From contig OY970386.1 of the NCBI GenBank assembly GCA_963719465.1, positions 789,789 to 853,788 on the forward strand: 64,000 bases of DNA. Reading direction: 5' to 3'. The stretch is from an uncultured Chloroflexia bacterium. Lineage in GTDB: Bacteria; Chloroflexota; Dehalococcoidia; DSTF01; JALHUB01. Both the position numbers and the translations under genes were made by a program. Shown piece by piece: positions 7,824-63,993 of the stretch. Each line of letters starts with the position of its first letter. Position 1 is the stretch's first letter. The notes under the pieces were generated by a model, which was not told the origin of the DNA, did no database searches, and saw only the letters and a program-made list of their open reading frames with translations.

Positions 7824-7847
7824 GTAGGGGAGGTCTTTAGACCTCCC
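7824..7847. repeat. REP element copy (GTAGGGGAGGTCTTTAGACCTCCC, perfect 9-bp inverted repeat)
   Basis: An identical 24-mer recurs at 32361, 32425 and, inverted, at 32938, flanking the RAYT gene. Confidence 0.8.
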
Positions 7848-28355: not shown

Positions 28356-29096
28356 CTAGGCTAGTCTCCCAGCTCGCCGAGCTCGTACATAAGCGCCGCC
28401 ACCGCTGCCATTCCCGCCGTCTCCGACCGCAGGATGCGCCGCCCCAGAGAGACGCGACGCGCTCCCGCCGCAACCGCTGCGTCCGCTTCTTCCTGCGTGA
28501 AGCCTCCCTCCGGCCCGACGAACAGCGACGCGACGTTCGAGCTGGCCTGCTTCGCCTGCTGCCTTCCGCAGCGTCTGCCGCAGCGACACCGCTTCTTCGC
28601 GCTCCCAGAGAAACAGCCGCAGTCCCGCCGCCGTCCCCAGCGCTTCCTCGAGCCGCGCCGGCGAATCGAGTTCCGGCAGCCGCGACCGTCCGCACTGCTC
28701 CGCCGCCTCGGTGACGATCCGGAGCCAACGCTCCCTTCGCTCTGAGCGCCCGGAACCGGGCCGCACGACGCGGCGGGCAGCCAGCAGCGGCACGAACCGC
28801 GCCACGCCCAGCTCCGTGCCCTTCTCCAGCAGCCAGTCGAACCGGTCGCCCTTGATGACCGCCTGGTAGAGGATCACCCGCGTCTTCGGCTCCGGCCTCC
28901 CCACGCGCCGTTCGACGACGGTCGCGCCCCGAGCGCCGTCCAGCGCCACCTCGTACTCGAAGCCGCTGCCGTCGAAAAGGATCACGCGGTCGCCGGCGCG
29001 CAGCCGCAGCACATGCCGCAGCCGGTGCGACAGCTCGTCGCCGAGCTCAACGTGCTCGCCCTGCACCGCCTCCGGAGCAACGTAAAACCTGTCCAT
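28356..29096 (-). CDS. rsmE: 16S rRNA (uracil1498-N3)-methyltransferase, frameshifted near 28560
   Basis: MDRFYVAPEAV...RVILFDGSGFEYEV...LYQAVIKGDRFDWLLEKGTELGV belongs to RsmE. The true C-terminus (SNVASLFVGPEGGFTQEEADAAVAAGARRVSLGRRILRSETAGMAAVAALMYELGELGD*) sits in a third frame ending at 28356. Confidence 0.8.
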   Translation of the reverse strand: MDRFYVAPEAVQGEHVELGDELSHRLRHVLRLRAGDRVILFDGSGFEYEVALDGARGATVVERRVGRPEPKTRVILYQAVIKGDRFDWLLEKGTELGVARFVPLLAARRVVRPGSGRSERRERWLRIVTEAAEQCGRSRLPELDSPARLEEALGTAAGLRLFLWEREEAVSLRQTLRKAAGEAGQLERRVAVRRAGGRLHAGRSGRSGCGGSASRLSGAAHPAVGDGGNGSGGGAYVRARRAGRLA

Positions 29097-29155
29097 CAAA
29101 TCCCTTCTGAGCGGCAGTGGTGCCCAACACGGAAACGCAATGCGAGCCCAAGGTA

Positions 29156-30000
29156 TCACGGGTCCGGGAGCAAGAACTCTATTCTTATCGGCTCGATCAC
29201 GCGATTCCGGACGTGATCCAAAATGGCGAATAGGATATCAGCCAATGGGCGATTCGTTGCTGATGGTCCTTCCTTCAAGACCACTTGCAAGGTAAAGACT
29301 GCATTCATGTTCGCTTTCGCAAAGTCTGCTGCGGCGGCGTTGTCAAATGTAGTATGGAGGATTTCTGTCCCGTCTTCCACAGGACCTGGTTCAATTTCCA
29401 AGGACAAAGGCCGGAGGACGGGATCAAGTGCGTACACCGCATCCCTGATGGTCGACTGGGTGATATGGAGCCGCCTGTGCTTGTCGATGTTCGTAAGCTC
29501 ATCGAGAATCCACAGGGGATGGCTGTGGGGGTCAAGGAGAGGATCTTCCTTCCGCATCTGATATGGTTGCAGCCCCTGGATCACCGCCTGCGCGTGAGGA
29601 TGAACTCCCCTCATTCTGTAAAGGCCGCTATGTGGAGCAGGGTCTCCCTTACGTTTTCCGTTACGTATCTTCTTAAGAAACTCGTCTTCGTCATCAAAAA
29701 TAGGGAAGGCCGTCTGCTTCAACTCCTTGCTGGAGTGCCTCACCGTCAGCGCCGTGATCAGATGGTCAAGGGCCAATCTAGTATTGTAGAGGAACTCACC
29801 GAGGATAACGTTCAGTCGAGGCGGCAGAGGTCGTCTAATCCTCGCTTGACAACTAGGTGCCCTACCTGCCCCACACCGTAGCTCTCGAATTCAATTGGGT
29901 TAGGGTTGTTGTCGCAGAAGGCGTTGATGGCCGCATCAGTCTCCGCCCAGTGCTCTTGCGCTCGATCGAGCTTGACGAGGTAGTCGGTCAAAATCGCCAT
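29156..30000 (-). CDS. hypothetical protein in a low-GC islet (possible HEPN-like Rx4H motif); probably one frameshifted gene
   Basis: ORF 29812..30000 (62 aa) and ORF 29156..29776 (206 aa) lie on the same strand. The latter frame stays open upstream to 29893 (...RLNVILGEFLYNTRLALDHLITAL...), so one indel probably splits one gene. GC here is about 50% versus about 66% in the flanks. I recognise no confident family. Confidence 0.45.
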
Positions 30001-30237
30001 GCGCTGTCCTCAGAACGTGAAGGACGCGGCAGTACAGGAAACCCCGAGGGGCACGAGATTCCTGCCGCCACGCGGGGAGACTTCATACGCCACCTGAAGA
30101 ATTCGGCGAAGCCCTCAACTCGGGCGCCCTCCCGGAGAGGCAGTTCCCCAGACTGGGCCCGCCCCTCCTTGAGGTGATTTTGGCGTTATGTGTAGCCTTC
30201 CTGGTAGCCCGCTGCCCGTCTAACGTCGCTTCCGCGA

Positions 30238-30266
30238 AGGCTGAGGGTTTCAACCCTCAGAACTGT
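30238..30266. repeat. palindromic element CAGTTCTGAGGGTTGAAACCCTCAG (inverted copy), downstream of prmA
   Basis: aaggCTGAGGGTTTCAACCCTCAGaactg is the reverse complement of the element at 59380 and a close relative of those at 59532 and 59682. Confidence 0.75.
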
Positions 30267-30283
30267 CTAATTATCCACATCGA

Positions 30284-31144
30284 TCAACCGGCCGCCTCGA
30301 AAACGACCGTCCGCCAATCTCCCTCAGCCATAACCTCGACGGCGCGGCCTCCGGCCCTTTCCAACGCCTCGCGGCAGTCCTCGACGCGCTCGCAGCCGAT
30401 GCCCGCCGCGATCCCGACGCCGCCGTGCTTCAAGACAGCGACGAGCTCGCCCGCCAGATCGATGACCGTCGTGCTGCTGATGTTGGCGACAACGCAATCG
30501 AAACGGGAACGCGGTACTACCGCCGGCCAGGCCTCACCCAGGCTTCCCTCCGCCACCGTCGCGCCTTCGACACCGTTGGCAACGACGTTCTCCGTCGCGA
30601 CCCCAACTGCCAGCGGGTCGTTGTCCAAAGCGACGACTTCGGCTCCCAAGAGCGCGCCGGCGATGGCGAGGATGCCCGAGCCGGTGCCAACGTCCAGCAA
30701 CCGCTGTCCCCACTTCAGGCGCTCAGCCAGCGCCAGTAGGCACATCCGCGTCGTTGCGTGCTGACCCGTTCCGAACGCCATGCCCGGGTCGAGCGTAATC
30801 ACCAGCTCGCCGGCTTTCCGTCGATGGTGCCGCCAGCGCGGCACGATCACGAACGGCCCGACCCGCTGCGCTCGAAAGTGCTTCTTCCAGGCGTTCGCCC
30901 AGTCCTCTTCGTGAACGGTGCGGCTCCGGACCGATGGCGCTCGCATGAGGGCAAGCCGCGACAGCTCGCGACGCAGGGCGCGGCGACGAGCAGGGAGACG
31001 GGAATCGCGCGGGAGATAAGCCTTGACGGTCGCCACGCCGTCGCTCGCTTCGATTGCGACGCCGCCGGCGCTGGCGCGCATCACGTCGCTTACGGCCTCT
31101 TCATCCTCCGGCGCGACGGCAACGGCGATCTCCAGCCAGTCCAA
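30284..31144 (-). CDS. prmA: ribosomal protein L11 methyltransferase
   Basis: LDVGTGSGILAIAGALLGA...VALDNDPLAV...VVANI are PrmA SAM-MTase motifs. It sits in conserved dnaJ-prmA-rsmE order. Confidence 0.85.
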   Translation of the reverse strand: MDWLEIAVAVAPEDEEAVSDVMRASAGGVAIEASDGVATVKAYLPRDSRLPARRRALRRELSRLALMRAPSVRSRTVHEEDWANAWKKHFRAQRVGPFVIVPRWRHHRRKAGELVITLDPGMAFGTGQHATTRMCLLALAERLKWGQRLLDVGTGSGILAIAGALLGAEVVALDNDPLAVGVATENVVANGVEGATVAEGSLGEAWPAVVPRSRFDCVVANISSTTVIDLAGELVAVLKHGGVGIAAGIGCERVEDCREALERAGGRAVEVMAEGDWRTVVFEAAG

Positions 31145-31157
31145 GTCGTGTCCTTCG

Positions 31158-32275
31158 CTAGCCGCCGAAGGTCTCTTTTACCTTGCCCATGAAGCCCTTG
31201 CCGTCGCGGTGCCCGCCGTCGTGCCCGCGCAGCGACTCGTCGAGCTCCTTCAGCAGCCGCTTCTGCTCTTCGCTCAAGTGCTTCGGCGTCACGACGTTCG
31301 CCGTAACGACCATGTCGCCGCGACCGCCGCCGCGCACGTGCGGCACGCCCTGCCGCTTCAGGACGAACTCGTGCCCCGACTGCGTGCCGGCGGGATCTTG
31401 AGCGGCTTGTCGCCGTCGAGCGTGGGAATCGTCTCTTCGTCGCCCAGAGTCGCCTGCGCGAAGCTCACATCCAGGTTCAGGAGAATGTCGTCGCCGTCGC
31501 GCTTGAACAGCGGGTGCTCCTGCACGGACAGCACGACGTAGAGGTTCCCGCGCCCGCCGCCGTACAGGCCCATCTCGCCCTCGCCGCTGATCCGTATCTG
31601 CGAGCCCTCGTCGACTCCGGCCGGTATCCGCACCTCCAGCTTGCGACTGCGCCGCTCCTGACCTGTACCCCGGCACTGCTCGCACGGCTTGTCGACGATC
31701 CGTCCCTCGCCGCCGCAGCGGTCGCAGGCCGTGACGTTGATGAACTGCCCGAAGATGCTGCGCTGCGTCCGCCGGATCTCCCCGCTGCCGTTGCAGACCG
31801 GGCACTTGCGCGGCTCGCTGCCCGGCTCGGCGCGCAGGCCGTTGCAGCGCGAGCAAGCCTCCTCGCGGCTGATTTCGACCTCTTTCGACGTGCCGAAGAC
31901 CGCCTCCTCGAACGTCAGGGTAAGGCGATAGCGCAGGTCGGAGCCTCGCTGCGGCTGGCGGCGTCTGGAGCGGGCGCCGCCGAAGAAAGCGTCGAAGATA
32001 TCGCCGAAGCCGCCAACGTCGAACCCCTCGAACGTGCGCGCGAAGGGGCTTTCGGCGCCGGCGTGCCCGAAGCGATCGTAAATAGCGCGACGCTCCGGGT
32101 CGGAGAGCACCTCGTAGGCCTCGTTTATCTCTTTGAAGCGCTCCTCCGCGCCGGGCTCCGGGTTGCGGTCCGGATGGAACTTCATCGCCAGGCGGCGGAA
32201 GGCGCGCTTTATATCGTCCTGGCTTGCGTTTCGCGGCACCCCCAGGACGTTGTAGTAATCGAGTTTAGTAGTCAT
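31158..32275 (-). CDS. dnaJ: chaperone DnaJ, frameshifted near 31375
   Basis: J-domain with HPD (KFHPDRNP), G/F region and four CxxCxGxG zinc-finger repeats in ORF 31358..32275. The C-terminal domain (...[38 protein letters not shown]) is in ORF 31158..31856. One G is missing in a ccggccggc run. Confidence 0.85.
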
Positions 32276-32360
32276 AGATAAGCATCGGTTGAATCGGCTT
32301 TCCCGCCGATCAACCTATGATAGCAGATTCGCGACGGTCTTTGGAGGTGCCACGGGAATG

Positions 32361-32384
32361 TAGGGGAGGTCTTTAGACCTCCCG
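32361..32384. repeat. REP element copy
   Basis: GTAGGGGAGGTCTTTAGACCTCCC, read directly. Confidence 0.8.
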
Positions 32385-32424
32385 CGTCTCTTTAGGCCTC
32401 CCACCCTAGGTGCGCCCCCAAATG

Positions 32425-32448
32425 TAGGGGAGGTCTTTAGACCTCCCG
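32425..32448. repeat. REP element copy overlapping the 3' end of the RAYT gene
   Basis: GTAGGGGAGGTCTTTAGACCTCCC. A degenerate half-site (ctctttaggcctccc) lies between this copy and the 32361 copy. Confidence 0.8.
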
Positions 32449-32988
32449 TGCATCCGCCGCATCCGACGCATCGTCGGCAAACGAACCAGAATATGGATAA
32501 GCGTCCGCCTCGTCCACCAGCCCAGCTCTAACTGGATTCTCTCTCACATACGTCCTCACATCCAGCAGGTCTTCTTCCCGTCGTAGCACGTGATCGTAGT
32601 AGCTCTTCTGCCAGAATGGACCGCTGCTGTCTAGCAACTGATTACAGAGGAATCCCGATCTCAGCTTGAAATGATGCACGAAACTCATCACGTCGACGCC
32701 CTCGGCAGCCATAACCACCAGATGCAGGTGGTCGGGCATGAAGCAATACTCCAGGACTTCAACGCCGGATCTCGTGGCACTGTCTGCCAAACAGCTAAGA
32801 CAGATTTCGACAGTTCCTGGGAATGAGAAGGCCCGTCGCCCGTCTTGCACGCGGGCGGTCAGGAAGAAGGCTCCGCCGCTTCGATATACTTCACGTGGCA
32901 GTCTGTTGGGCTTACGTCGACGGAATCCGCAAGAAGCGGGAGGTCTAAAGACCTCCCCTACATCACTCGGACCACCGCCGTCGCGCAT
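32437..32988 (-). CDS. REP-associated tyrosine transposase (RAYT, IS200/IS605-like TnpA_REP)
   Basis: ...GGAFFLTARV...EYCFMPDHLHLVVM (HuH motif) ...FWQKSYYDHVLRREEDL (catalytic Tyr region). The start codon is uncertain because a REP lies inside the 5' end. Its ORF-track start is 2 nt from the leuB stop. Confidence 0.75.
   Translation of the reverse strand: MRDGGGPSDVGEVFRPPASCGFRRRKPNRLPREVYRSGGAFFLTARVQDGRRAFSFPGTVEICLSCLADSATRSGVEVLEYCFMPDHLHLVVMAAEGVDVMSFVHHFKLRSGFLCNQLLDSSGPFWQKSYYDHVLRREEDLLDVRTYVRENPVRAGLVDEADAYPYSGSFADDASDAADAREV
32938..32961. repeat. REP element copy in inverted orientation inside the 5' end of the RAYT ORF
   Basis: GGGAGGTCTAAAGACCTCCCCTAC. Confidence 0.8.
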
Positions 32989-40591: not shown

Positions 40592-41008
40592 TCACTTTGC
40601 CGTCTTTTTCGCCCCTGCCTTTGCCTTCGCCTTCGCCTTCGCCAGATTGTAATCCACAGCGGAACGCACCAGATTCCTCAGTTCGATCTCCTTAATCTTT
40701 TCGTCTTTGACATAATCGATGGTCCGCCATTTTTTGCCCGCAAGCCCGTTGTTGTAGAGCTTGTCCGGGTCGGCGACACTCGCGCCTTCATAGAACGTCA
40801 ATTTCACTTTGTCTTTGAAAGCATTGGCGATACAGACTATTCCGCCGTGAGACCATACCGGCGTGCCCATCCATTTCCATTCCTCAACTATCTCTGGGTC
40901 AGCCTCACGGATAATCCGTCGAATGCCAGCGAACGTCTTGCCGCGCCAGTCGGTAAGTTCCGCCACCAGGCTGTCTATCAGTTCACTTGCACCCATGTTC
41001 TTCTCCAC
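40592..41008 (-). CDS. DUF1801 (YdhG-like) domain protein, low-GC insertion between ilvN and ilvC
   Basis: WKWMGTPVWSHGGIVCIANAFKDKVKLTFYEGASVADP matches DUF1801, with a KAKAKAKAGAKK tail. GC is about 50% against about 66% around it. Confidence 0.7.
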   Translation of the reverse strand: MEKNMGASELIDSLVAELTDWRGKTFAGIRRIIREADPEIVEEWKWMGTPVWSHGGIVCIANAFKDKVKLTFYEGASVADPDKLYNNGLAGKKWRTIDYVKDEKIKEIELRNLVRSAVDYNLAKAKAKAKAGAKKTAK

Positions 41009-43636: not shown

Positions 43637-43876
43637 AGAAAAGACCCGTCCCAAAGGGATCCCATGGGACGGGACCGTACCACCCTTCTTGTCGCCTGAG
43701 GCGACCGGTTTCAGCGCGTTAACGGTCGCTTTCCGGCCGGACCTGGCGAAATCGCTCAGTCCGGCGGCTCCGGGGCGAGTTCAGGCTCTTCGTGTCGCCG
43801 GCTCTCACCATTCCGCCGGCTCTCTGAGACAGGAAGCTGGCCTTACTACTCCCCATCACGGCCTTTGTCTTATGTG
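43637..43876 (-). promoter_or_regulatory. T-box riboswitch leader upstream of the ilv-leu operon (candidate Leu specifier CUC)
   Basis: Minus strand: a GA-motif start (GAUGGGGAGUAGUA), a CAGAGAG AG-box, GAACUCG in a specifier-like position, and the T-box sequence AAGGGUGGUACGG. It ends with the terminator CCCGUCCCA-UGGGAUCCCUU-UGGGACGGG plus UCUUUUCUU. About 330 nt remain before ilvB. Confidence 0.55.
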
Positions 43877-44585: not shown

Positions 44586-45035
44586 TTAGGGGTGGTCTCG
44601 GTTGGAGAACGCTGTGTGCCAAACGACAGGGTCTGCCGGAATCTGAGTAATGAAGGGAGTCACGCCCTCCAGATCTGCCGTTGCACAGATCAGGGTGACA
44701 ATATCGGGGGCCGAAGCAATAACCTGGTGATCGACGATCGCAACCCACTGGCCACTGTATCGAGCGCGAAGATCATCGAGGTTCGCGCTTAACCATTCCA
44801 GTACTCCCGCCGCAGCAGGTACAGATTGAGAGGCGCGTATATTCGCCACATGCTCCGGGGGGACCAGACCCTCAGCGCCAACCTGCCAGTATTTCACCAT
44901 CACATCGCCCTGCTCCGTCACGTACCATTCAACGCCGAACGACTCCAACTGTCGTAGGATATCTTTAACCGGTAGGCCGCTCGTGACTAGCGATTCGATG
45001 ATGTCTTGTGTGCTGGTGCTTGACGAGACGTTCAT
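44586..45035 (-). CDS. DUF5678-like domain protein
   Basis: C-terminal GQWVAIVDHQVIASAPDIVTLI resembles the DUF5678 core. It overlaps the upstream gene by 4 nt. Confidence 0.5.
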   Translation of the reverse strand: MNVSSSTSTQDIIESLVTSGLPVKDILRQLESFGVEWYVTEQGDVMVKYWQVGAEGLVPPEHVANIRASQSVPAAAGVLEWLSANLDDLRARYSGQWVAIVDHQVIASAPDIVTLICATADLEGVTPFITQIPADPVVWHTAFSNRDHP

Positions 45036-45376
45036 TTGGAGCCTTCCGGCCGAGCCTCAATAGCCCCCTGAGTGCGAGTCCTAAGAATCTCACCGATGTT
45101 AGCGGCGTGGGAGATGCTCACCGTGATGGTAGCCCGAAGGCGCGTTCGGACCAGAGTCATCGTCCCGGTTGGCCCCGGCGGGCCGGGGATGGTTTCGTAG
45201 AACTGGAGTACAATCTCGTTGCCAGTATTTAGGACTTGCGCAATGTCGGAATAAAGGGAGATGGCATCCGGCGGCTGTTCAAAGACCCGCTGAGCCTGGT
45301 GAAGCTCGGGCTGCTGGGTTTGAGCTGGCTGTTCACCCTGAGTCATGTGCTCCCTCCTCGGTGGAGAGCATAGCAT
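45032..45376 (-). CDS. DUF3467-like protein
   Basis: ...ISLYSDIAQVLNTGNEIVLQFYETIPGP... fits the DUF3467 pattern (YSN...EFxLDF). Confidence 0.5.
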   Translation of the reverse strand: MLCSPPRREHMTQGEQPAQTQQPELHQAQRVFEQPPDAISLYSDIAQVLNTGNEIVLQFYETIPGPPGPTGTMTLVRTRLRATITVSISHAANIGEILRTRTQGAIEARPEGSK

Positions 45377-47677: not shown

Positions 47678-48026
47678 CCTCCGATCCGACTTCTCGAATC
47701 TGCCGTTGCCGGTTTCACCACTGGCTCGCCGAGGGCCTCGGTGACCATGCGACAGGCTCGAAGCCCATCGCCACGCCCCGCGGGGGGGACACGCCCTCGG
47801 TTCAACGCCTCAACAGACAGTAGCTTCTCTGGGAGACAATCTGCCTCCTCACACAGGAAAACGGCCGCCGCGAGCCGCCGTTACAGCCGCCGCGGCCGCC
47901 CGTCGAATCTACGGCAGCGTTTTTCACGCTTTCTTCACGTTCTTCGACTGCGATTCACGGCGACCGCACTTGGCGAACCTATGCTGAAGGGTCGGCGAGT
48001 CATCAAGAAACGAAGGAGTTAGAGAA

Positions 48027-56751: not shown

Positions 56752-59352
56752 ATGACGACCGACAGCGGCATTGGCAACGTGCGCCCAATCAAGATTGAAG
56801 ACGAGATGCGCGCGTCTTACCTGGACTACGCGATGAGCGTTATCGTGTCGCGGGCGCTGCCAGACGTACGCGACGGACTGAAGCCCGTTCAGCGCCGCAT
56901 TCTCTACGGGATGTCGGAGCTGAACCTGCGTTCGAACGCAGCCTATCGCAAGTGCGCCACGACCGTCGGCGATGTCATGGGCAAGTATCACCCGCACGGC
57001 GACGCCGCCATCTACGAAACGCTCGTGCGGATGGCGCAGGATTTCTCATTGCGGTACCCGCTTGTCGATGGGCAGGGGAACTTCGGCAGCATGGACGGCG
57101 ACTCAGCGGCGGCGATGCGCTACACGGAGGCGCGACTGGCTGCCGTGGCCGAGGAGATGCTCGCCGACATCGACAAAGACACGGTCGATTTCGTCCCCAA
57201 CTTCGATGACAAGAACAAGGAGCCGGTTGTCCTGCCCTCCCGTCTGCCGAACATTCTCGCCAATGGCGCCTACGGTATCGCCGTCGGCATGGCGACGAAT
57301 ATCCCACCGCACAATCTCGGAGAGGTCTGCGACGCCATCTGCCAGCTGATAGACAAGCCGGATGCGACGACGGATGAGCTGGCCGAGATCATCAAGGGGC
57401 CAGACTTCCCAACCGGCGGCTTCATCTTCCGCTACGAGCAGGTGCGCAGGGACGGCACGGAAGCGCGAGAGGACTCTATTAGAGAGGCGTATCGTGACGG
57501 CCGCGGGCGGGTCATGATGCGGGCCTGCACCCACATCGAAGAATCAACCCGCGGCGGACGGCAGCATATCGTGGTGACGGAGCTGCCTTACATGACGAAC
57601 AAGGCTGCGCTGATCGAGCGGATCGCAGAGCTGGCGCGCACGAAGCGTGTCGAGGGCATAAGCGACCTGCGTGACGAGTCGGACCGGCACGGGATGCGCA
57701 TCGTGGTCGAGCTGAGCCGGGCCGGGCAGGCGCAGGAGGTGCTAAACCAGCTCTACCGCTTCACCAGCATGCAATCGTCATTCCCGATCAACATGCTGGC
57801 CCTTGTCGACGGGCAGCCGCGGACGCTGAGCCTGAAGCGAATACTGGAGCACTACGTCGCCTTCCGGCGAGAGGTCATCCGGCGGCGTTCGCAGTTCGAC
57901 CTGGACCGGGCTCGGGAGCGTGAGCACATCCTGCAGGGGCTGATGAAGGCGCTTCAGAACGTGGACGAGGTGATTCAGACGATCCGCAAGGCGCAGTCGG
58001 CGGAGAACGCCAAGGAACGGCTGATGAAGGCGCCGTTCAAGATGAGCGAGCGGCAGGCGCAGGCGGTGCTGGACATGCAGCTTCGTCGTCTGGCGCGGCT
58101 GGAGCGACAGAAGATCGAAGAGGAGTACAACGGCGTCATCCAGCAGATCGCCTACCTGGAGGACCTGCTGGGCAATCCGCGGAAGATCGACTTCCTCATC
58201 AAGGAGGAGGCGCAGGACATCAAGAAGCGTTTCGGCGACCCGCGCCGGACGCGGATCATCGACCAAGAGCTCGTGGAGCTGACGACGGAAGACCTGGTGC
58301 CACACCAGGAGACCGTCGTCACGCTGAGCAATCGTGGCTACATCAAACGCATCCCGCTGGACACGTACCGACTGCAGCGACGCGGCGGTCGCGGCATCAC
58401 GGGCATGACGACACGCGAGGCGGACGCCGTGCGGCGCCTGCTGGTCGCGGACACGCACGACAGCATGCTTTTCTTCACCGGCCGGGGCTGCGTCTTCCAG
58501 CTGCGGGCGTATGAGCTGCCGGACGCCAAGCGCCAGGCAAAAGGCGACGCGCTGGTGAACCTGATCGACATGCCGCAGGGTGACACGGTGACGGCTCTTG
58601 TCGGCGTGCGGAGTTTCGAGAAGGACTACCTGGTGCAGGCGACCCGGCGGGGCGAGGTGAAGAAGACGGCGCTCTCCGAGTTCGAGTCGGTGCGGCGCGC
58701 CGGGCTGATCTGCATGGACCTGGAGTCGGGCGACGAGCTGGTAACGGCGAAGCAGGTGGCGGAGGACGACGACGTGGTTCTCATCAGCAACCGGGGCAAG
58801 GCGGTGCGATTCTCGGTCAAGGAGCTGCGGGCGGCGTCGCGGGCGAGCGGCGGCGTGCGCGGGATACAGCTCGGGAAGGACGAGAAGGTGGTCGGGATGG
58901 AAGTGGTAACGCACAACACGCAGCTGCTGACGGTGACGGCCAACGGCTTCGGCAAACGGACGCCTTTCGAGGACTACCCGCGGCACCATCGCGGCGGCGG
59001 CGGCGTGGTGACGCATCAGATAACGGACAAGACAGGCCTCGTCGTGGCGGCGCGAACGGTGGACGAGATGCAGGAGCTGATGATCATCTCCTCCTCCGGC
59101 ATCATCCTGCGGACGCGGATCGACTCGATATCGATGGTGGGACGCGGGACGCAGGGCGTGCATCTGATGGGCGTCGGGCCGGGCGATGCGGTGGCGTCGA
59201 TATCGGTGTTCGAGGTCGGGCAGGCGCACAACAAGGCCGGGCCGGCCGAGGCGAAGAAGAAGGCGGCCGAGACGTCGAAGGGCGGCGACGGGAAGAGCCC
59301 AACGGTGGCGAAGGCGTCGAAGAAGCCGTCGTCGAAGGGCAAGAAGAGCTAG
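56752..59352 (+). CDS. gyrA: DNA gyrase subunit A
   Basis: [28 protein letters not shown]...[20 protein letters not shown], the active-site Tyr region, and a C-terminal beta-pinwheel with a KK-rich tail. A TGaTATAAT extended -10 lies about 25 nt upstream. Confidence 0.95.
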
Positions 59353-59379
59353 CTCATCTCACCGCGCGGGCCTGACAAG

Positions 59380-59408
59380 GCAGTTCTGAGGGTTGAAACC
59401 CTCAGCTT
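59380..59408 (+). terminator. intrinsic terminator-like hairpin after gyrA (palindromic element family 2)
   Basis: CAGTTCTGAGGGTTGAAACCCTCAGCTTTA, a 7-bp GC-rich stem followed by a T-tract on the plus strand. Confidence 0.6.
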
Positions 59409-59531
59409 TACGTGAAAGGCGTCAGCGCCAACAGCAACGCCTCGCTCCATCGTCGCAGCCCCGATCCCGCCACTCCTCGCTACTCTCCCAGACTAGGTTT
59501 TCGCGGGCTGCTGGGCGGCCTGCTGAAGGAC

Positions 59532-59560
59532 GGTTCTGAGGGATGAATCCCTCAGCTTTT
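59532..59560 (+). terminator. second copy of the terminator-like hairpin (inside tandem repeat copy 1)
   Basis: GGTTCTGAGGGATGAATCCCTCAGCTTTT. Confidence 0.55.
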
Positions 59561-59681
59561 CGTGAAGGACGCCCCTGCAGTTCTTTAGCATCTCGCCCCA
59601 AGAATCGAGCCGCCCCACGCCTCACCAGCGTTCCGAGACGGCCTACGTCGTCGCGGGCTGCTCAGCGGCCTGCTGAAGGAC

Positions 59682-59710
59682 GGTTCTGAGGGATGAATCC
59701 CTCAGCTTTT
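59682..59710 (+). terminator. third copy of the terminator-like hairpin (inside tandem repeat copy 2)
   Basis: GGTTCTGAGGGATGAATCCCTCAGCTTTT. Confidence 0.55.
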
Positions 59711-59793
59711 CGTGAAGGACGCTGGCGCGGTTGCTCCGGCATTTCGCCGCAAGAATCGAGCCACCCCACCCCTCACCAGCGTTCCGAGCTGGC

Positions 59794-60675
59794 CTACGTC
59801 GTCGCGGGCTGCTCAGCGGCCTGCTGGGCCTCGAGGGTTTTCTGGCGCTGGCGGAAGTCCTTGATGAAGCGGGCGCTATACTCGTCGAGGCCGTGGAGCA
59901 TGTCGGCGGCAAGGACGAGCGGGCGGGCTTTGGCGACGTCGATGATGGGGCAGTTGACGCCGGCGCCGATGAGCAGGGCGAGGAAGGTCGAGTTTATCAG
60001 GTCGCGGTCGGGCAGGCCGAAGGAGACGTTGCTGACGCCGGCGGTGACGTTCTGGCCGATCTCGGCGCGGACGCGGCGGACGGCTTCGAGGGTCTGAGCG
60101 GCGGCAGTGTGGTCGGTGCCGACGGTCATGACGAGGCAGTCGATGATGACGTCTTCCTGGGGGATGCCCATCTGGACGGCGCGGTCGACGATCTTGTGGG
60201 CGATGGCGACGCGCTTGTCGGCGGAGGTCGGGATGCCTTCGTCGTCCATGCAGAGGCCGATGAAGGCGGTGCCGTACTCTTTGACGAGGGGCATGAGGGC
60301 GGCCATGGCCTTCTCTTCGCCGGTGATGGAGTTGATGATGGGCTTGCCCTTGTAGACGGCGAGGGCAGCCCTCAAGGCCTCCGGGATGTTGCTGTCGATG
60401 CTGAGGGGGATGTCGACAGCGTCCATGACGGTCTGGAGGGCGATGGGGAGCGTCTTGACCTGGTCGAGGCCGGCGACGCCGATGTTGACGTCGAGGATGT
60501 CGGCGCCGGCCTGGACCTGGGCGATGGCGGAGGCGCGGACGAGGTCCATGTCGCCTTCGAGGAGGGCAGCGGCGAGCTTCTTCTTACCGGTGGGGTTTAT
60601 GCGCTCGCCGATGAGGACGGTTGCCTGAAGGCCGATGACGACTTCTCTGGTGGCGGATGACAGCCTTGTCAGCAT
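59794..60675 (-). CDS. pterin-binding domain methyltransferase (MtrH/AcsE/MetH-pterin-like; methyl-THF:corrinoid methyltransferase family)
   Basis: GERINPTGKKK, a DHPS-like TIM barrel (DILDVNIGVAG...IDSNIPEAL...VSNVSFGLP), about 293 aa. Confidence 0.75.
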   Translation of the reverse strand: MLTRLSSATREVVIGLQATVLIGERINPTGKKKLAAALLEGDMDLVRASAIAQVQAGADILDVNIGVAGLDQVKTLPIALQTVMDAVDIPLSIDSNIPEALRAALAVYKGKPIINSITGEEKAMAALMPLVKEYGTAFIGLCMDDEGIPTSADKRVAIAHKIVDRAVQMGIPQEDVIIDCLVMTVGTDHTAAAQTLEAVRRVRAEIGQNVTAGVSNVSFGLPDRDLINSTFLALLIGAGVNCPIIDVAKARPLVLAADMLHGLDEYSARFIKDFRQRQKTLEAQQAAEQPATT

Positions 60676-61006: not shown

Positions 61007-61633
61007 TTATTGCGGGTAGGGGCGCAGGTTCTGCATGACTTGGACGAGGAGGTCCGGGTTATTGATGAAGACGTTGAGTTGCGCGTCGAGGGCGCGGTCG
61101 GAAGTTACGATGTCGTCAACCTCAGCACGAACAACAACGGAGTCGAACGTTAAGACGACGTTTATGCGGTGAGCGGGCAGATCTCCTGCGGGATGCGTGA
61201 TTAGTTGTGCCTGCTGACCCTGAATATTCACCTCGCGCTTGGTGACCTTGTAGCGGCTCGGAACTCCGGGCAGCGGGAGGTTTAGGATTCCCTGCTTTAC
61301 CCGTTCCCAAGCAGCGGGGCTATAAACGGTTATGTCCAGTGACGGGTTTGAGCCCGCGAAGGGAGTCGCGAGCCACGCCGAATACCCTACTTGAGCTCCC
61401 CCACCCTCAACCTCGTCGCCACTGCCGTACGGGCCCTGAAATGCCAGCCCATTCGCAGTGAACCCATTTCCTAGCCAGTACACGGGCAGCTCCATGTCCT
61501 GCATCGTCTTCACGTCTCGGAGGAAGTATCCATAGAATTGGCGGTTCAGTTCCTGCTGGCTCAGGCACGAAGCAGCAAAAAGGCCGGCGGCCAAGACAAT
61601 TGAGAGGACCAGGAGTCTACGCAGTAACGTCAT
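61007..61633 (-). CDS. hypothetical lipoprotein
   Basis: MTLLRRLLVLSIVLAAGLFAASC is a lipobox signal peptide. No family recognised. Confidence 0.5.
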   Translation of the reverse strand: MTLLRRLLVLSIVLAAGLFAASCLSQQELNRQFYGYFLRDVKTMQDMELPVYWLGNGFTANGLAFQGPYGSGDEVEGGGAQVGYSAWLATPFAGSNPSLDITVYSPAAWERVKQGILNLPLPGVPSRYKVTKREVNIQGQQAQLITHPAGDLPAHRINVVLTFDSVVVRAEVDDIVTSDRALDAQLNVFINNPDLLVQVMQNLRPYPQ

Positions 61634-61731
61634 AGCAGCCTCCCTCTTGACACTCCGTATGTTCCGAGCATCATACGTCTGTTCCAAAGACTCGGCAAGA
61701 GCCGCCGTTCCCTAACGTCAAGGAGGACGCT

Positions 61732-63993
61732 ATGAAAGCGATCAGCCTCGGGTCGCGTGTCACCCTTTCTTTCGTGGTCCTCGCGGTGGCTTTGTTCATC
61801 AAGACGCCCGGCTCCCTTCCATCGCAAGCCGCAGAGGAGGGTTACTTAAAACCCTTCTCCGTACCAGCGCAACAGTATGGCCCTCCCTGGCTTGGTCACA
61901 TTGATTGGGGAGGGTTTGTCCGGTCCCCTTGCTGCGACTTGCCGGTGACGTTTCCGGATGACGAGATAGCGTTCAGAAGTGACCTGGCGGCCGGCGTTGC
62001 CATCCAGATAGACGGCGCCCAGGTCCACAATCGGTGGATTTGGCGCTATTACGAGCCGGACGGAACCCTCTATTCAGATGTCTGCTTCATGGACATACGG
62101 CAACCTGGAGAACCCGGGAATAACACCTCGTATGTCGCATTGGTGACGAACTGTGGTTGGTATAGCGGATGGCAGGTGCTGGAAACGTTCCCTGGAGGGT
62201 GCCCCTGCTCCCCTTCCAATGCCTGGATGCTGGCCCCGATCATTTCCGGTGGCCCTCTCTGGTCGATGCGTGGCATATGGGATTTTGATGTTGACTACAC
62301 CGATGATTACACGAATCCGAGCGGAGACACTATTCCCGTGACCTGGGGTGAAATGAACTTGATGTCCACACCGGCGGTCTTGCTGGTGCACGGCTGGGAG
62401 AGCGATTGCAGCAGCGTCAGTACTTTGCAGCAGAATCTCGCTTCCATTCTCGCCATCCCTTCGGATAATCTCAAGTGCTACGACTACGATTCCCGAGAGG
62501 GGGTCGAGGCGGGGGCGCAGCATCTCAAGCAGAACATCGAGGATTTCCGGCAGAGACTCGCGCTGCTTCCGGATGAAGAGATCGACATAGTTGCCCACAG
62601 CATGGGCGGATTGGTGGCTCGTTACTACCGGGAGAGCCGCGACGAGAATGGCAATTTACTTTTGTATAATCCGGCGACCGACGGGCCCATTGGCAGCATC
62701 ACCATGCTAGGCACACCCAACAATGGCGTATGGGCTGCCGATCTTGCCGATTGGATATGCGATTACAAGCATTTCGGTTTTCTAACTTGTCCCGTATTTG
62801 ATTGGGCGACCGCCAAGTACTTTGGCGTAGATCTCACTTCCCAAGCTGTGGTTGACATGGCCCCCATGTCTTGGGTTCTGCGGGAGTTGAACCAAGGCTT
62901 CACTCTCCCCCAGTGGCCGGATCTGCCACTGTATGCAGCGCACGCTGGCACTAATCATGGTCCCGTTGGGGACGTTGTCAGCAAAAGTCGGAACAACGAC
63001 TGCTTGGTCGCTGTAAGTAGCGTTGGTGGACCAAACAACATCTTCGACCCCCTACAGTACCAGGTAAGCCACAGCGAATACCTTCCCTTCCCAGGATGTG
63101 GTTCCCCGTCCCTCGTCGATGATATGGATGTCGCAGACCACGTGGCAGAAACCATCAAGGGGGAATCCATATTGCCGGATATGCCTGCCACCGCAGCGCC
63201 GCAGTCTCAGACGACGGGGCTGCTTGCCGGCGCTGGGCCGATGATCGGAAGTGCAGTCGACTACGTGACGCCTAACGCCTCGAAGACATATACGTTCACC
63301 GTCCCCAGCGGTCTCGGAGAAGCATCTTTTGTAGTGTATTGGCTAGACTCCAATACGCAGGAAGCTAATCTGGGAGTCACCCTCCGTCGGCCCAGTGGCC
63401 AGCTCGTCAACCCGACCGATCCCGACCTGGCCGAACAACCCCAAGTAACAAGCAACGGCCCGTTCTATGTGTTGTTCAGCGGGTATGTCATGAACGCGCC
63501 TGTCGCGGGTGATTGGCAGGTTACAGTGAACGGCGTGTCGGTCCCCGATCAAGGACAAGCGTTTGTTGTGGCCCTGATGCCTTTGGACAGCCAGGTTGCC
63601 CTTGGCGCTTCCGCTTCTGCCCCACGAGTGTTGCAAGATCAGGCGGAGGTCATCACGGGGGCGGTGTTCGATGGCAGCAGCGCGATAGCCCCAACTTCTA
63701 TTTCGGCGGTGGTAACGACGCCCTCCGGGGACCAGGAGCCAGTCACTTTGCAGGACGACGGGACCGGAGGAGACCAGGTAGCCGGGGATCAAGTCTACTC
63801 AGGCACCTTCACGTCTACAACTCAATGTGGCGGATATGCCGTAACGGTGAACGCCACGGCGAGCAGCAGCTCGGAGGGAACCGTAACGCGGCAACAGTTC
63901 GTTACCTTTCAATCACAGGTGATTGGCGATGCCGTAGAGATCCATGCAACCCGGACGAAGATGGTGATGGTCTTCCTGATGCGACTGAGCTGA
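61732..63993 (+). CDS. secreted alpha/beta-hydrolase (PGAP1/lipase-class-2-like triacylglycerol lipase) with C-terminal pre-peptidase/Ig-like domains
   Basis: Signal peptide; LLVHGWESDCSSV...DIVAHSMGGLVARYY (GxSxG nucleophile elbow) ...MLGTPNNGVWAAD; a C-terminal beta-rich region of about 300 aa. Local GC is about 55%. Confidence 0.7.
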   Translation: MKAISLGSRVTLSFVVLAVALFIKTPGSLPSQAAEEGYLKPFSVPAQQYGPPWLGHIDWGGFVRSPCCDLPVTFPDDEIAFRSDLAAGVAIQIDGAQVHNRWIWRYYEPDGTLYSDVCFMDIRQPGEPGNNTSYVALVTNCGWYSGWQVLETFPGGCPCSPSNAWMLAPIISGGPLWSMRGIWDFDVDYTDDYTNPSGDTIPVTWGEMNLMSTPAVLLVHGWESDCSSVSTLQQNLASILAIPSDNLKCYDYDSREGVEAGAQHLKQNIEDFRQRLALLPDEEIDIVAHSMGGLVARYYRESRDENGNLLLYNPATDGPIGSITMLGTPNNGVWAADLADWICDYKHFGFLTCPVFDWATAKYFGVDLTSQAVVDMAPMSWVLRELNQGFTLPQWPDLPLYAAHAGTNHGPVGDVVSKSRNNDCLVAVSSVGGPNNIFDPLQYQVSHSEYLPFPGCGSPSLVDDMDVADHVAETIKGESILPDMPATAAPQSQTTGLLAGAGPMIGSAVDYVTPNASKTYTFTVPSGLGEASFVVYWLDSNTQEANLGVTLRRPSGQLVNPTDPDLAEQPQVTSNGPFYVLFSGYVMNAPVAGDWQVTVNGVSVPDQGQAFVVALMPLDSQVALGASASAPRVLQDQAEVITGAVFDGSSAIAPTSISAVVTTPSGDQEPVTLQDDGTGGDQVAGDQVYSGTFTSTTQCGGYAVTVNATASSSSEGTVTRQQFVTFQSQVIGDAVEIHATRTKMVMVFLMRLS

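Follow-up and report, generated by a model that had tools for sequence, protein, structure and literature searches.

What is the low-GC islet that separates rsmE from prmA in the 64,000-nt stretch of DNA analyzed here (the window), and how did it come to lie there? The segment at 29156-30000 had a GC content of 0.535, with 200-nt minima of 0.495-0.50, and the neighboring rsmE and prmA had 0.71 and 0.68. It was the lowest-GC stretch of 845 nt in the 64-kb window (mean 0.643, sd 0.033, z = -3.2). A fall to about 50% had been noticed in the sequence-only reading; the fall is real, but this figure was too low for a mean of 53.5%. The two flanking genes had been named correctly, as Pfam showed. The product of rsmE (28361-29097, minus strand), once its single frame break was repaired, matched Methyltrans_RNA and PUA_4, and a protein identical to the product of the intact prmA (30284-31144, minus strand) matched PF06325. 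Logan accession ERR10755942 contains a prmA and a spacer identical to those of the window.

A scan with PrmA over one genome per species gave 80 loci, mostly from Chloroflexota. The closest relative was a Dehalococcoidia MAG (L001), with 78% identity. In the six closest relatives, prmA and rsmE lay -1 to 146 nt apart, and in most other relatives of the scan less than 50 nt, compared to 1186 nt in the window. The near-contiguity of the two genes in relatives, where the islet was absent from the junction, bore out the earlier view of the islet as an insertion. In a blastn comparison with L001, the homology running from the prmA stop ended at 30208 and resumed only at the start codon of rsmE (29097). 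We therefore assigned the foreign DNA to 29099-30207, an insert of 1109 nt that stands in for about 38 nt of spacer present in L001. The islet had been drawn as far as 30280, which cannot be upheld, since the foreign DNA stops at 30207 and positions 30208-30283 matched the L001 spacer (84% over 76 nt).

This ancestral spacer contains a perfect palindrome, CTGAGGGTTTCAACCCTCAG, at 30241-30260, with a 9-bp stem and a 2-nt loop, which had been taken for the edge of the islet. Because the islet-free L001 carries the same hairpin at the matching place in its 146-nt spacer, the hairpin is ancestral and not an islet border, and a role as attachment site was ruled out on the same ground. A second hairpin of L001, CTGCGGGATTCATCCCGCAG, lies exactly where its homology to the window stops, and the insertion may have hit this second hairpin.

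The islet is thus a 1.1-kb horizontally acquired insert, and nearly all of it is a two-gene head-to-head cassette. The larger gene (29156-30000, minus strand) runs from an ATG at 30000-29998 to a stop at 29158-29156 and encodes 281 aa after one frame repair. It appears in the window as two ORFs on the minus strand, 29812-30000 and 29156-29776, which had been suspected to be one gene and are indeed two frames of the same gene. One frame was translated as MAILTDYLVKLDRAQEH...HLVVK and a second one, which reaches the stop, as ...RRPLPPRLNVILGEFLYNTRLALDHL..., with the break near 29845-29875. Homologues of 248-281 aa spanned both parts in alignment, and the family HMM matched both frames (profile positions 4-42 and 50-253), with E-values on the window of 6e-6 for the N-terminal part and 8e-59 for the C-terminal part.

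The earlier inventory of the islet contained the large gene but overlooked a second one. Upstream of the large gene, a weak match at the DNA level led to a small divergent ORF at 30017-30177 (plus strand), with a GTG at 30017 and a stop at 30175-30177, which encodes about 53 aa after repair in the G-run at 30048-30051. The repaired product reads VKDAAVQETPRG up to the junction and HEIPAATRGDFIRHLKNSAKPSTRAPSRRGSSPDWARPSLR from there to the stop, and was 52-63% identical to family members across the junction. Its HMM matched the window at 30049-30174 with E=2.8e-13. Searches with jackhmmer and HMM located the ORF in the window and, with matching place and orientation, at no fewer than 14 other loci. 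Members of the family are basic, 41-55 aa long, and share the motif KQKTxKGxEIPVPxRxDFxRxLKKVAKP and a tail rich in K, R, and P; a public collection holds 1904 called proteins (clusters) of it under no name, and no Pfam match was obtained. In the window copy, an Ala replaces the invariant Pro (EIPAA versus EIPVP), and from this substitution the copy may be decaying.

The two start codons are separated by 16 nt (30001-30016), in which an AGGA at 30010-30007, on the minus strand, is the likely ribosome-binding site of the large gene. Spacers of 16-20 nt with AGGAT or AGGTT at the matching offset occurred at eight other loci (L102, L115, L119, L155, L160, L191, L195, and L197), and the spacer was exactly 16 nt, as in the window, in L119, L155, L191, L195, and L197. 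The small ORF accompanied about 12 of 90 large-family loci (about 13%), most of them linked to an insertion sequence (IS); a positional filter gave 10, missing the window and L119.

Both cassette genes carry a frame break, that of the small ORF inside the G4 run at 30048-30051. The proteins of six intact relatives, used in tblastn, showed that the window dnaJ is split between two frames at 31391-31394 and that rsmE is split between frames -3 and -1 at about 28531-28560. These two genes lie 1.3 kb to either side and have one break each, so that 4 kb of a source contig longer than 1 Mb contain four frame breaks of a single base, half of them in housekeeping genes. Since the neighboring dnaJ and rsmE are broken in the same manner, both cassette genes most likely owe their breaks to indels of the assembly. 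The frameshift split proposed earlier is therefore present in the sequence, but it is probably not biological.

The breaks could also be read as signs of a relic, in which case the cassette would be a pseudogenised leftover that no longer functions in this genome. Such a reading would agree with a break in each cassette gene, with the missing transposase and inverted repeats described below, and with the replaced Pro of the small protein. It is opposed by the single breaks in adjacent dnaJ and rsmE, which point to assembly error, by the position of the small-ORF break in a homopolymer, and by the intact ribosome-binding site, spacer, and conserved residues of the large protein. Every near-invariant family residue is kept in the window copy, and the conserved residues retained are K10, R13, H17, N73, R75, D79, H80, F99-P100-I101, Q145-P146-Y147, and D173-K174-H175-R176. 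Because these residues are intact and the breaks are probably assembly indels, we did not take the large gene as a demonstrated pseudogene, and we consider the relic unlikely.

The merged large protein had no match in Pfam, NCBIfam, PADLOC, or PHROGs. Pfam-A was silent for the protein itself (E<=10), for 102 family members (E<=1), and for the family consensus with three of its sub-regions (E<=10), and the other libraries gave nothing consistent for the consensus either. When the 102 relatives were searched one by one against Pfam, PADLOC, and NCBIfam, only scattered chance matches appeared, with nothing consistent among them. A sequence-profile search of the PDB returned a single chance match to a HAD hydrolase (E=0.08). 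The clusters of the family in the source data were all named "hypothetical protein".

A word-indexed search found only five relatives, with 29-35% identity. A profile built from these five, run against 1.84 billion cluster representatives, retrieved 18,974 of them at E<=1e-3, of which 14,056 passed E<=1e-10; almost every one was 240-290 aa long. Apparent domain fusions in longer members were mostly mis-called N-termini. The large protein is a member of a very large and diverse family without a curated model, which comprises about 19,000 clusters at 50% identity. The earlier statement that it belongs to no nameable family holds for the curated libraries, but not for the uncurated sequence space.

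Column statistics were computed from 102 family members. P146 was invariant (102/102), and R75 and H175 (101/102 each), G68 and F99 (100/102 each), and D79, P100, and D173 (99/102 each) were nearly so. A14 was kept in 98/102, K174 in 97/102, R13 in 96/102, K10 in 95/102, and H17 in 90/102. H80 was present in 80/102, with Y in 13, N in 4, L in 2, and Q in 2. The conserved blocks cover residues 1-20, 61-100, and 161-180, and residues 181-281 are variable.

An AlphaFold2 model from the 102-sequence alignment reached a pLDDT of 89.3 and a pTM of 0.87, compared to a pLDDT of 64 for an earlier, poor model from 6 sequences. The predicted fold begins with a long helix (residues 2-30) and a beta-hairpin (36-53), followed by a second long helix (62-90) that carries N73-x-R75-x3-D79-H80. 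After several short helices comes a helix at 162-175 ending in D173-K174-H175-R176, then a four-stranded sheet (180-242) and a C-terminal helix (253-277). Foldseek with this model found nothing better than E=0.5 in the PDB. In BFVD it found one unnamed phage protein, A0A514TZW7 (E=9e-12), which carries no functional information.

The sequence-only reading had proposed a HEPN-like nuclease of the defence type on the strength of two peptide motifs, Rx4H and NIDKHRRLH. The window protein does contain both motifs. An RNase of the HEPN type (Rx4-6H), working alone as a toxin in abortive infection or defence, would account for a near-invariant Arg (R75, 99%) four residues before a mostly conserved His (H80, 78%; Tyr in 13%) in a helical region. 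It would also suit a mobile stand-alone gene that evolves fast and turns up in the lysogeny regions of prophages, at some loci beside R-M, CBASS, or RT genes. However, neither the protein, nor the 102 relatives, nor the consensus matched any HEPN model of Pfam. PADLOC-DB v2 gave nothing for the window protein, and the 102 relatives had only four single matches at chance level (E>0.02). The PDB holds many HEPN structures, and Foldseek with the pLDDT-89 model retrieved none of them. Moreover, 22% of members have another residue in place of the His. D173-K174-H175 is retained by 95-99%, which makes D-K-H-R the best conserved motif. The canonical HEPN domain is reportedly a four-helix up-down bundle whose motif opens the last core helix (Anantharaman et al. 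2013); in the model, the motif lies in the middle of the second long helix, after only one helix and a hairpin. We therefore regard a HEPN RNase as improbable. The islet is neither an artefact, nor a housekeeping gene, nor a recognizable HEPN or defence gene. Further resemblances noted by eye, to tyrosine recombinases (HxxR...Y), to a ParB-like DGHHR motif, and to PD-(D/E)xK and HD motifs, were each rejected for misfitting spacing and predicted secondary structure and for the lack of profile support.

The surroundings of family genes were then compared at 80 metagenome loci, 16 loci from IMG/VR, and further loci taken from records of phages and plasmids or looked up by identity. Clustering of the neighbors yielded a single recurrent one, an IS1595-family transposase (PF12762, DDE_Tnp_IS1595). 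Of 97 distinct loci, 17 had it within 2.5 kb of the large gene; among the 32 loci with at least 1.5 kb on either side, the figure was 6. Transposase and window-type cassette stood side by side in L102, L115, L119, L149, L155, L160, L173, L197, and L198.

Inverted repeats of the form GGnnAnTATCCCTTGA (GGnnAnTATCCC...) enclosed the transposase and the large gene, and 8-9-bp direct repeats stood outside them. The target duplications were TTCCTGAA in L097, AATCTCGA in L142, CCCGATGT in L173, TTATCCTAA in L155, and TTTTTCAAA in L197. Because inverted repeats and duplications bracket the transposase and the large gene together, the large gene at these loci is true cargo of a transporter IS of about 2 kb. 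In its three-gene form, this IS consists of the transposase, the small ORF, and the large gene; elements of the L097/L142 type have the large gene and no small ORF. Two intact elements sat exactly in hairpin loops, with the loop as the duplication. In ISfinder, the ISNwi1 group has ends of the form ggnnatTAT and 8-bp duplications, and from this end consensus the cassette-bearing elements may belong to that subgroup.

The same association appeared when loci were sampled from the small ORF. Six of seven distinct loci had an IS1595 transposase or fragments of it; the transposase was convergent with the small ORF, which overlapped its 3' end by about 27 nt. The large gene was adjacent in five of the seven, lost in L189, and cut off by the contig end in L199. 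The state of the transposase formed a series: L197, L198, and L199 were complete three-gene elements, L195/196 kept a 119-aa stump, L189 and L190 kept fragments, and L191-194, like the window, had none.

Both marks of the cargo cassette were found in the window, a full-length match to the large-gene profile and a divergent small ORF with the AGGA spacer. The same geometry at other loci was that of the cargo of the ~2-kb three-gene IS1595 elements. The window locus is very probably an inserted cargo cassette of this IS1595 type. A six-frame translation of the window gave no transposase HMM match anywhere, and pattern, PWM, and nhmmer scans of the islet borders gave no inverted repeats or target duplication. 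A 7-nt match, ATCCCTT, beside the rsmE start was considered as an IS end and dropped, since it fell below background in the PWM and nhmmer scans. The window copy would thus be cargo stranded apart from transposase and repeats. Given the series of decaying transposases, the most economical origin that we infer is cargo left by a decayed element, with the truncated-transposase loci as intermediates; transfer of the cassette by recombination could have led to the same arrangement. The route of arrival stays a matter of inference because no transposase fragment, inverted repeat, or target duplication is left at the locus.

The three genes of the element diverge at different rates. Among nine three-gene elements, mean pairwise identity was 55% for the transposase (46-75%), 49% for the small ORF (34-76%), and 30% for the large protein (22-38%). 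Between L155 and L197, the transposases were 75% and the small ORFs 69% identical, the large proteins only 30%. L097 and L142 have near-identical ends and transposases with 79% identity; their DNA identity was 56-85% in the transposase half and 36-51% in the cargo half. On these sequence comparisons, the hypervariability of the large protein fits either diversifying selection or allele swapping, and it argues against a co-evolving transposition cofactor.

This last point bears on whether the cassette is instead part of the transposition machinery, serving as a regulator or as a factor in target choice, for example of hairpin loops, rather than as independent cargo. The fixed geometry of the elements, with the ~27-nt overlap of small ORF and transposase, would be expected of such a role, as would the repeated carriage of the family by one IS lineage. 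The two intact elements that sit exactly in hairpin loops, with the loop as duplication, and the window insert abutting spacer hairpins could likewise reflect target choice. On the other hand, an IS is lacking in the vicinity of about 80% of family genes, some of which are carried by phages and plasmids. The sequence of the large protein also changes much more quickly than that of the transposase, unlike a co-evolving partner, and elements of the L097/L142 type carry the large gene but do without the small ORF. In addition, IS1595-family elements normally need a single ORF (ISfinder). A part in transposition is accordingly not likely, and independent cargo remains our preferred reading.

Elements of this kind resemble the transporter ISs of the IS1595 family, a concept that PMC3129680, in the passage citing them, credits to Siguier, Gagnevin & Chandler (2009). 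The relatives of the cassette lie inside elements with a PF12762 transposase, inverted repeats, and 8-9-bp duplications, and these elements carry genes unrelated to transposition. The window copy differs in having no transposase, repeats, or duplication. In the literature on passenger genes of ISNwi1 and IS1595 elements, we found no three-gene layout, small convergent ORF, or hypervariable cargo. The window pair matches the cargo of a compact three-gene IS1595 element, of which no earlier description was found in the literature.

The large gene also travels by other means. Relatives were found in chromosomes, on plasmids of actinobacteria, and in temperate actinophages, each standing by itself in reverse orientation. 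In prophiGD13-2, the family gene (gp34) lies between HNH and terminase, in Gordonia phage ZiggyZoo (gp32) beside the serine-integrase region, and in a metagenomic prophage (carrying P0005) between integrase/resolvase and terminase; Gordonia phage Samba has a member as well. The family is rare in sequenced phages, with 3 of 50,697 records in two queries. Genes at such actinophage positions are often expressed in lysogeny (PMC8092301). In their reverse orientation and solitary placement, by the integrase/immunity region or between early and late genes, the family genes resemble actinophage morons and prophage-mediated defence genes (PMC8092301). They differ in that the window copy lies outside any prophage and that a defence role of the family would be a reading from context.

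The neighbors were otherwise heterogeneous. Among 136 neighbor proteins there were a few type IIG or type I R-M proteins, one CBASS, and one RT, together with housekeeping genes, and no clear defence-island signal emerged. No fixed protein partner was found among them besides the IS1595 transposase and the small ORF. The large protein is not obligately borne by an IS, since some 80% of its family loci lack one in the vicinity and the small ORF accompanies only about 13%.

The most likely function of the islet, judged from this context, is that of a fast-evolving, self-contained module of the conflict type. The large protein would be a self-contained effector. Its conserved N-terminal helical core combines basic with His and Asp residues (K10, R13, H17, R75, D79, H80, D173, K174, H175, and R176), and this cluster, going by residue types, would likely act on a substrate with phosphates, for instance nucleic acid, by binding or cleaving it. 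Specificity could then come from the C-terminal half, which is hypervariable. The small basic protein, divergent from an overlapping control region, might regulate or neutralise the large one, and the carrier could gain through exclusion of competing elements or phages, or through addiction. This mechanism of effector and regulator, drawn from context, is tentative; for the explanation as a whole, in which identity and origin of the islet are blended with the mechanism, we consider the chances somewhat better than even.

Addiction would be the whole purpose of the pair if it were a toxin-antitoxin system, with the large protein as toxin and the small basic protein as antitoxin. Two-gene modules on mobile elements have this form, the small partner is the better conserved one, and Phd/YefM antitoxins occurred in two neighboring loci, as would suit a TA-rich setting. 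However, the genes are divergent and not co-transcribed as in a type II pair, the small gene is absent from most family members, and neither protein matched Pfam, NCBIfam, or PADLOC or any TA family. Such a pair seems very improbable to us, and we retain the conflict-type module with a regulator or neutraliser.

The broadest form of the conflict reading goes further: the large and small proteins would constitute an unrecognized and very widespread conflict system of about 19,000 clusters at 50% identity, most of which come from Actinobacteria and Chloroflexota of soil. Its fold class would be new, with specificity assigned to a hypervariable half and catalysis or phosphate binding to a conserved core, and one lineage of IS1595 elements would have it as dedicated cargo and bring it into hairpin loops. 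We consider this doubtful as a complete statement; if it were true, it would describe an IS that brings its own weapon of exclusion or addiction.

If the cargo reading is correct, a family of tens of thousands of proteins is missing from Pfam, NCBIfam, PADLOC, and PHROGs, and its fast-diverging members are habitually carried as cargo by a compact insertion sequence of three genes. The ~2-kb element, together with the phage genes prophiGD13-2 gp34 and ZiggyZoo gp32, would make an easily cloned test system, which bears on why some ISs carry genes unrelated to transposition and on the role of this cargo. For annotation, a low-GC "hypothetical" islet in a conserved operon would become recognizable as stranded IS cargo even where no transposase is present.

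The hairpin at 30241-30260 is in itself a member of a small dispersed family of palindromes, and in this it resembles REP elements. Its relatives at 59386, 59536, and 59686 each lie inside 150-nt tandem units, with none expected by chance. The hairpin differs from the REPs that flank a RAYT gene in being unrelated to them in sequence, as well as ancestral and outside the islet. A true REPtron, with a RAYT and its REPs, is present 2 kb away from the hairpin region.

The targets of related IS1595-family elements were compared at loci where these elements carry a large cargo gene. Two complete three-gene elements, L197:2574-4640 and L155:3703-6499, were inserted exactly within the loop of a hairpin with a G/C stem, which read TCCCCC-TTTTTCAAA-GGGGGA in L197 and TCCCCCC-TTATCCTAA-GGGGGGA in L155, and the loop was in both cases the target duplication. 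Moreover, the targets of the elements at L097:3051-5038 and L142:3296-5334 were short palindromes. These results suggest that the elements prefer hairpin or terminator targets. When the elements were compared in pairs (L097 with L142, and L155 with L197), the transposases were 75-79% identical and the ends almost the same, while the cargo alleles, which belong to the same family, were only about 30% identical. Extra passenger genes were also found, encoding a DUF6338 protein in L173 (4169-4795) and a 300-aa ORF without a match in L155 (5534-6436).

In more distant Chloroflexota, the prmA-rsmE junction was occupied by other, unrelated genes, which were named from sequence reading: a putative mannose-6-phosphate-isomerase-like cupin (L031/L041:6954-8092), a 365-aa ORF (L077:5081-6600) and a putative GNAT-like ORF (L079:6032-6781). 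The junction seems to tolerate insertions.

Compared with six intact relatives, dnaJ and rsmE each contained one frame break, at window positions 31391-31394 and 28531-28560, respectively. These single breaks suggest that indel errors are common in the assembly of the window, and other apparent pseudogenes in it should thus be treated with caution.

A REPtron was also present near dnaJ, in a low-GC patch at 32358-32988. Its Y1_Tnp (IS200-like/RAYT) ORF (32437-32988, minus strand) was flanked by copies of the REP palindrome GGGAGGTCTTTAGACCTCCC, two of which lay at 32364 and 32428 and a third, in inverted orientation, at 32938; a solo copy was located at 7828. The closest relative, L001, lacked this patch, and about 110 nt separated dnaJ from the neighbouring gene there. 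Downstream of an 866-aa ORF ending at 59352, the intergenic region 59377-59830 consisted of three tandem units of about 150 nt, each of which had a variant of the prmA-spacer palindrome (CTGAGGGWTGAAWCCCTCAG).

Other low-GC stretches of the window contained a DUF1801 gene with an ilvC-like gene on one side and an acetolactate-synthase-like gene on the other (40592-41008), overlapping genes for a DUF5678 protein and a 114-aa partner (44586-45376), and a block encoding putative secreted proteins of 226 and 753 aa (61007-63993). In addition, a T-box leader (43662-43868) and a c-di-GMP-II riboswitch (47698-47821) were matched in Rfam with scores above the gathering score.
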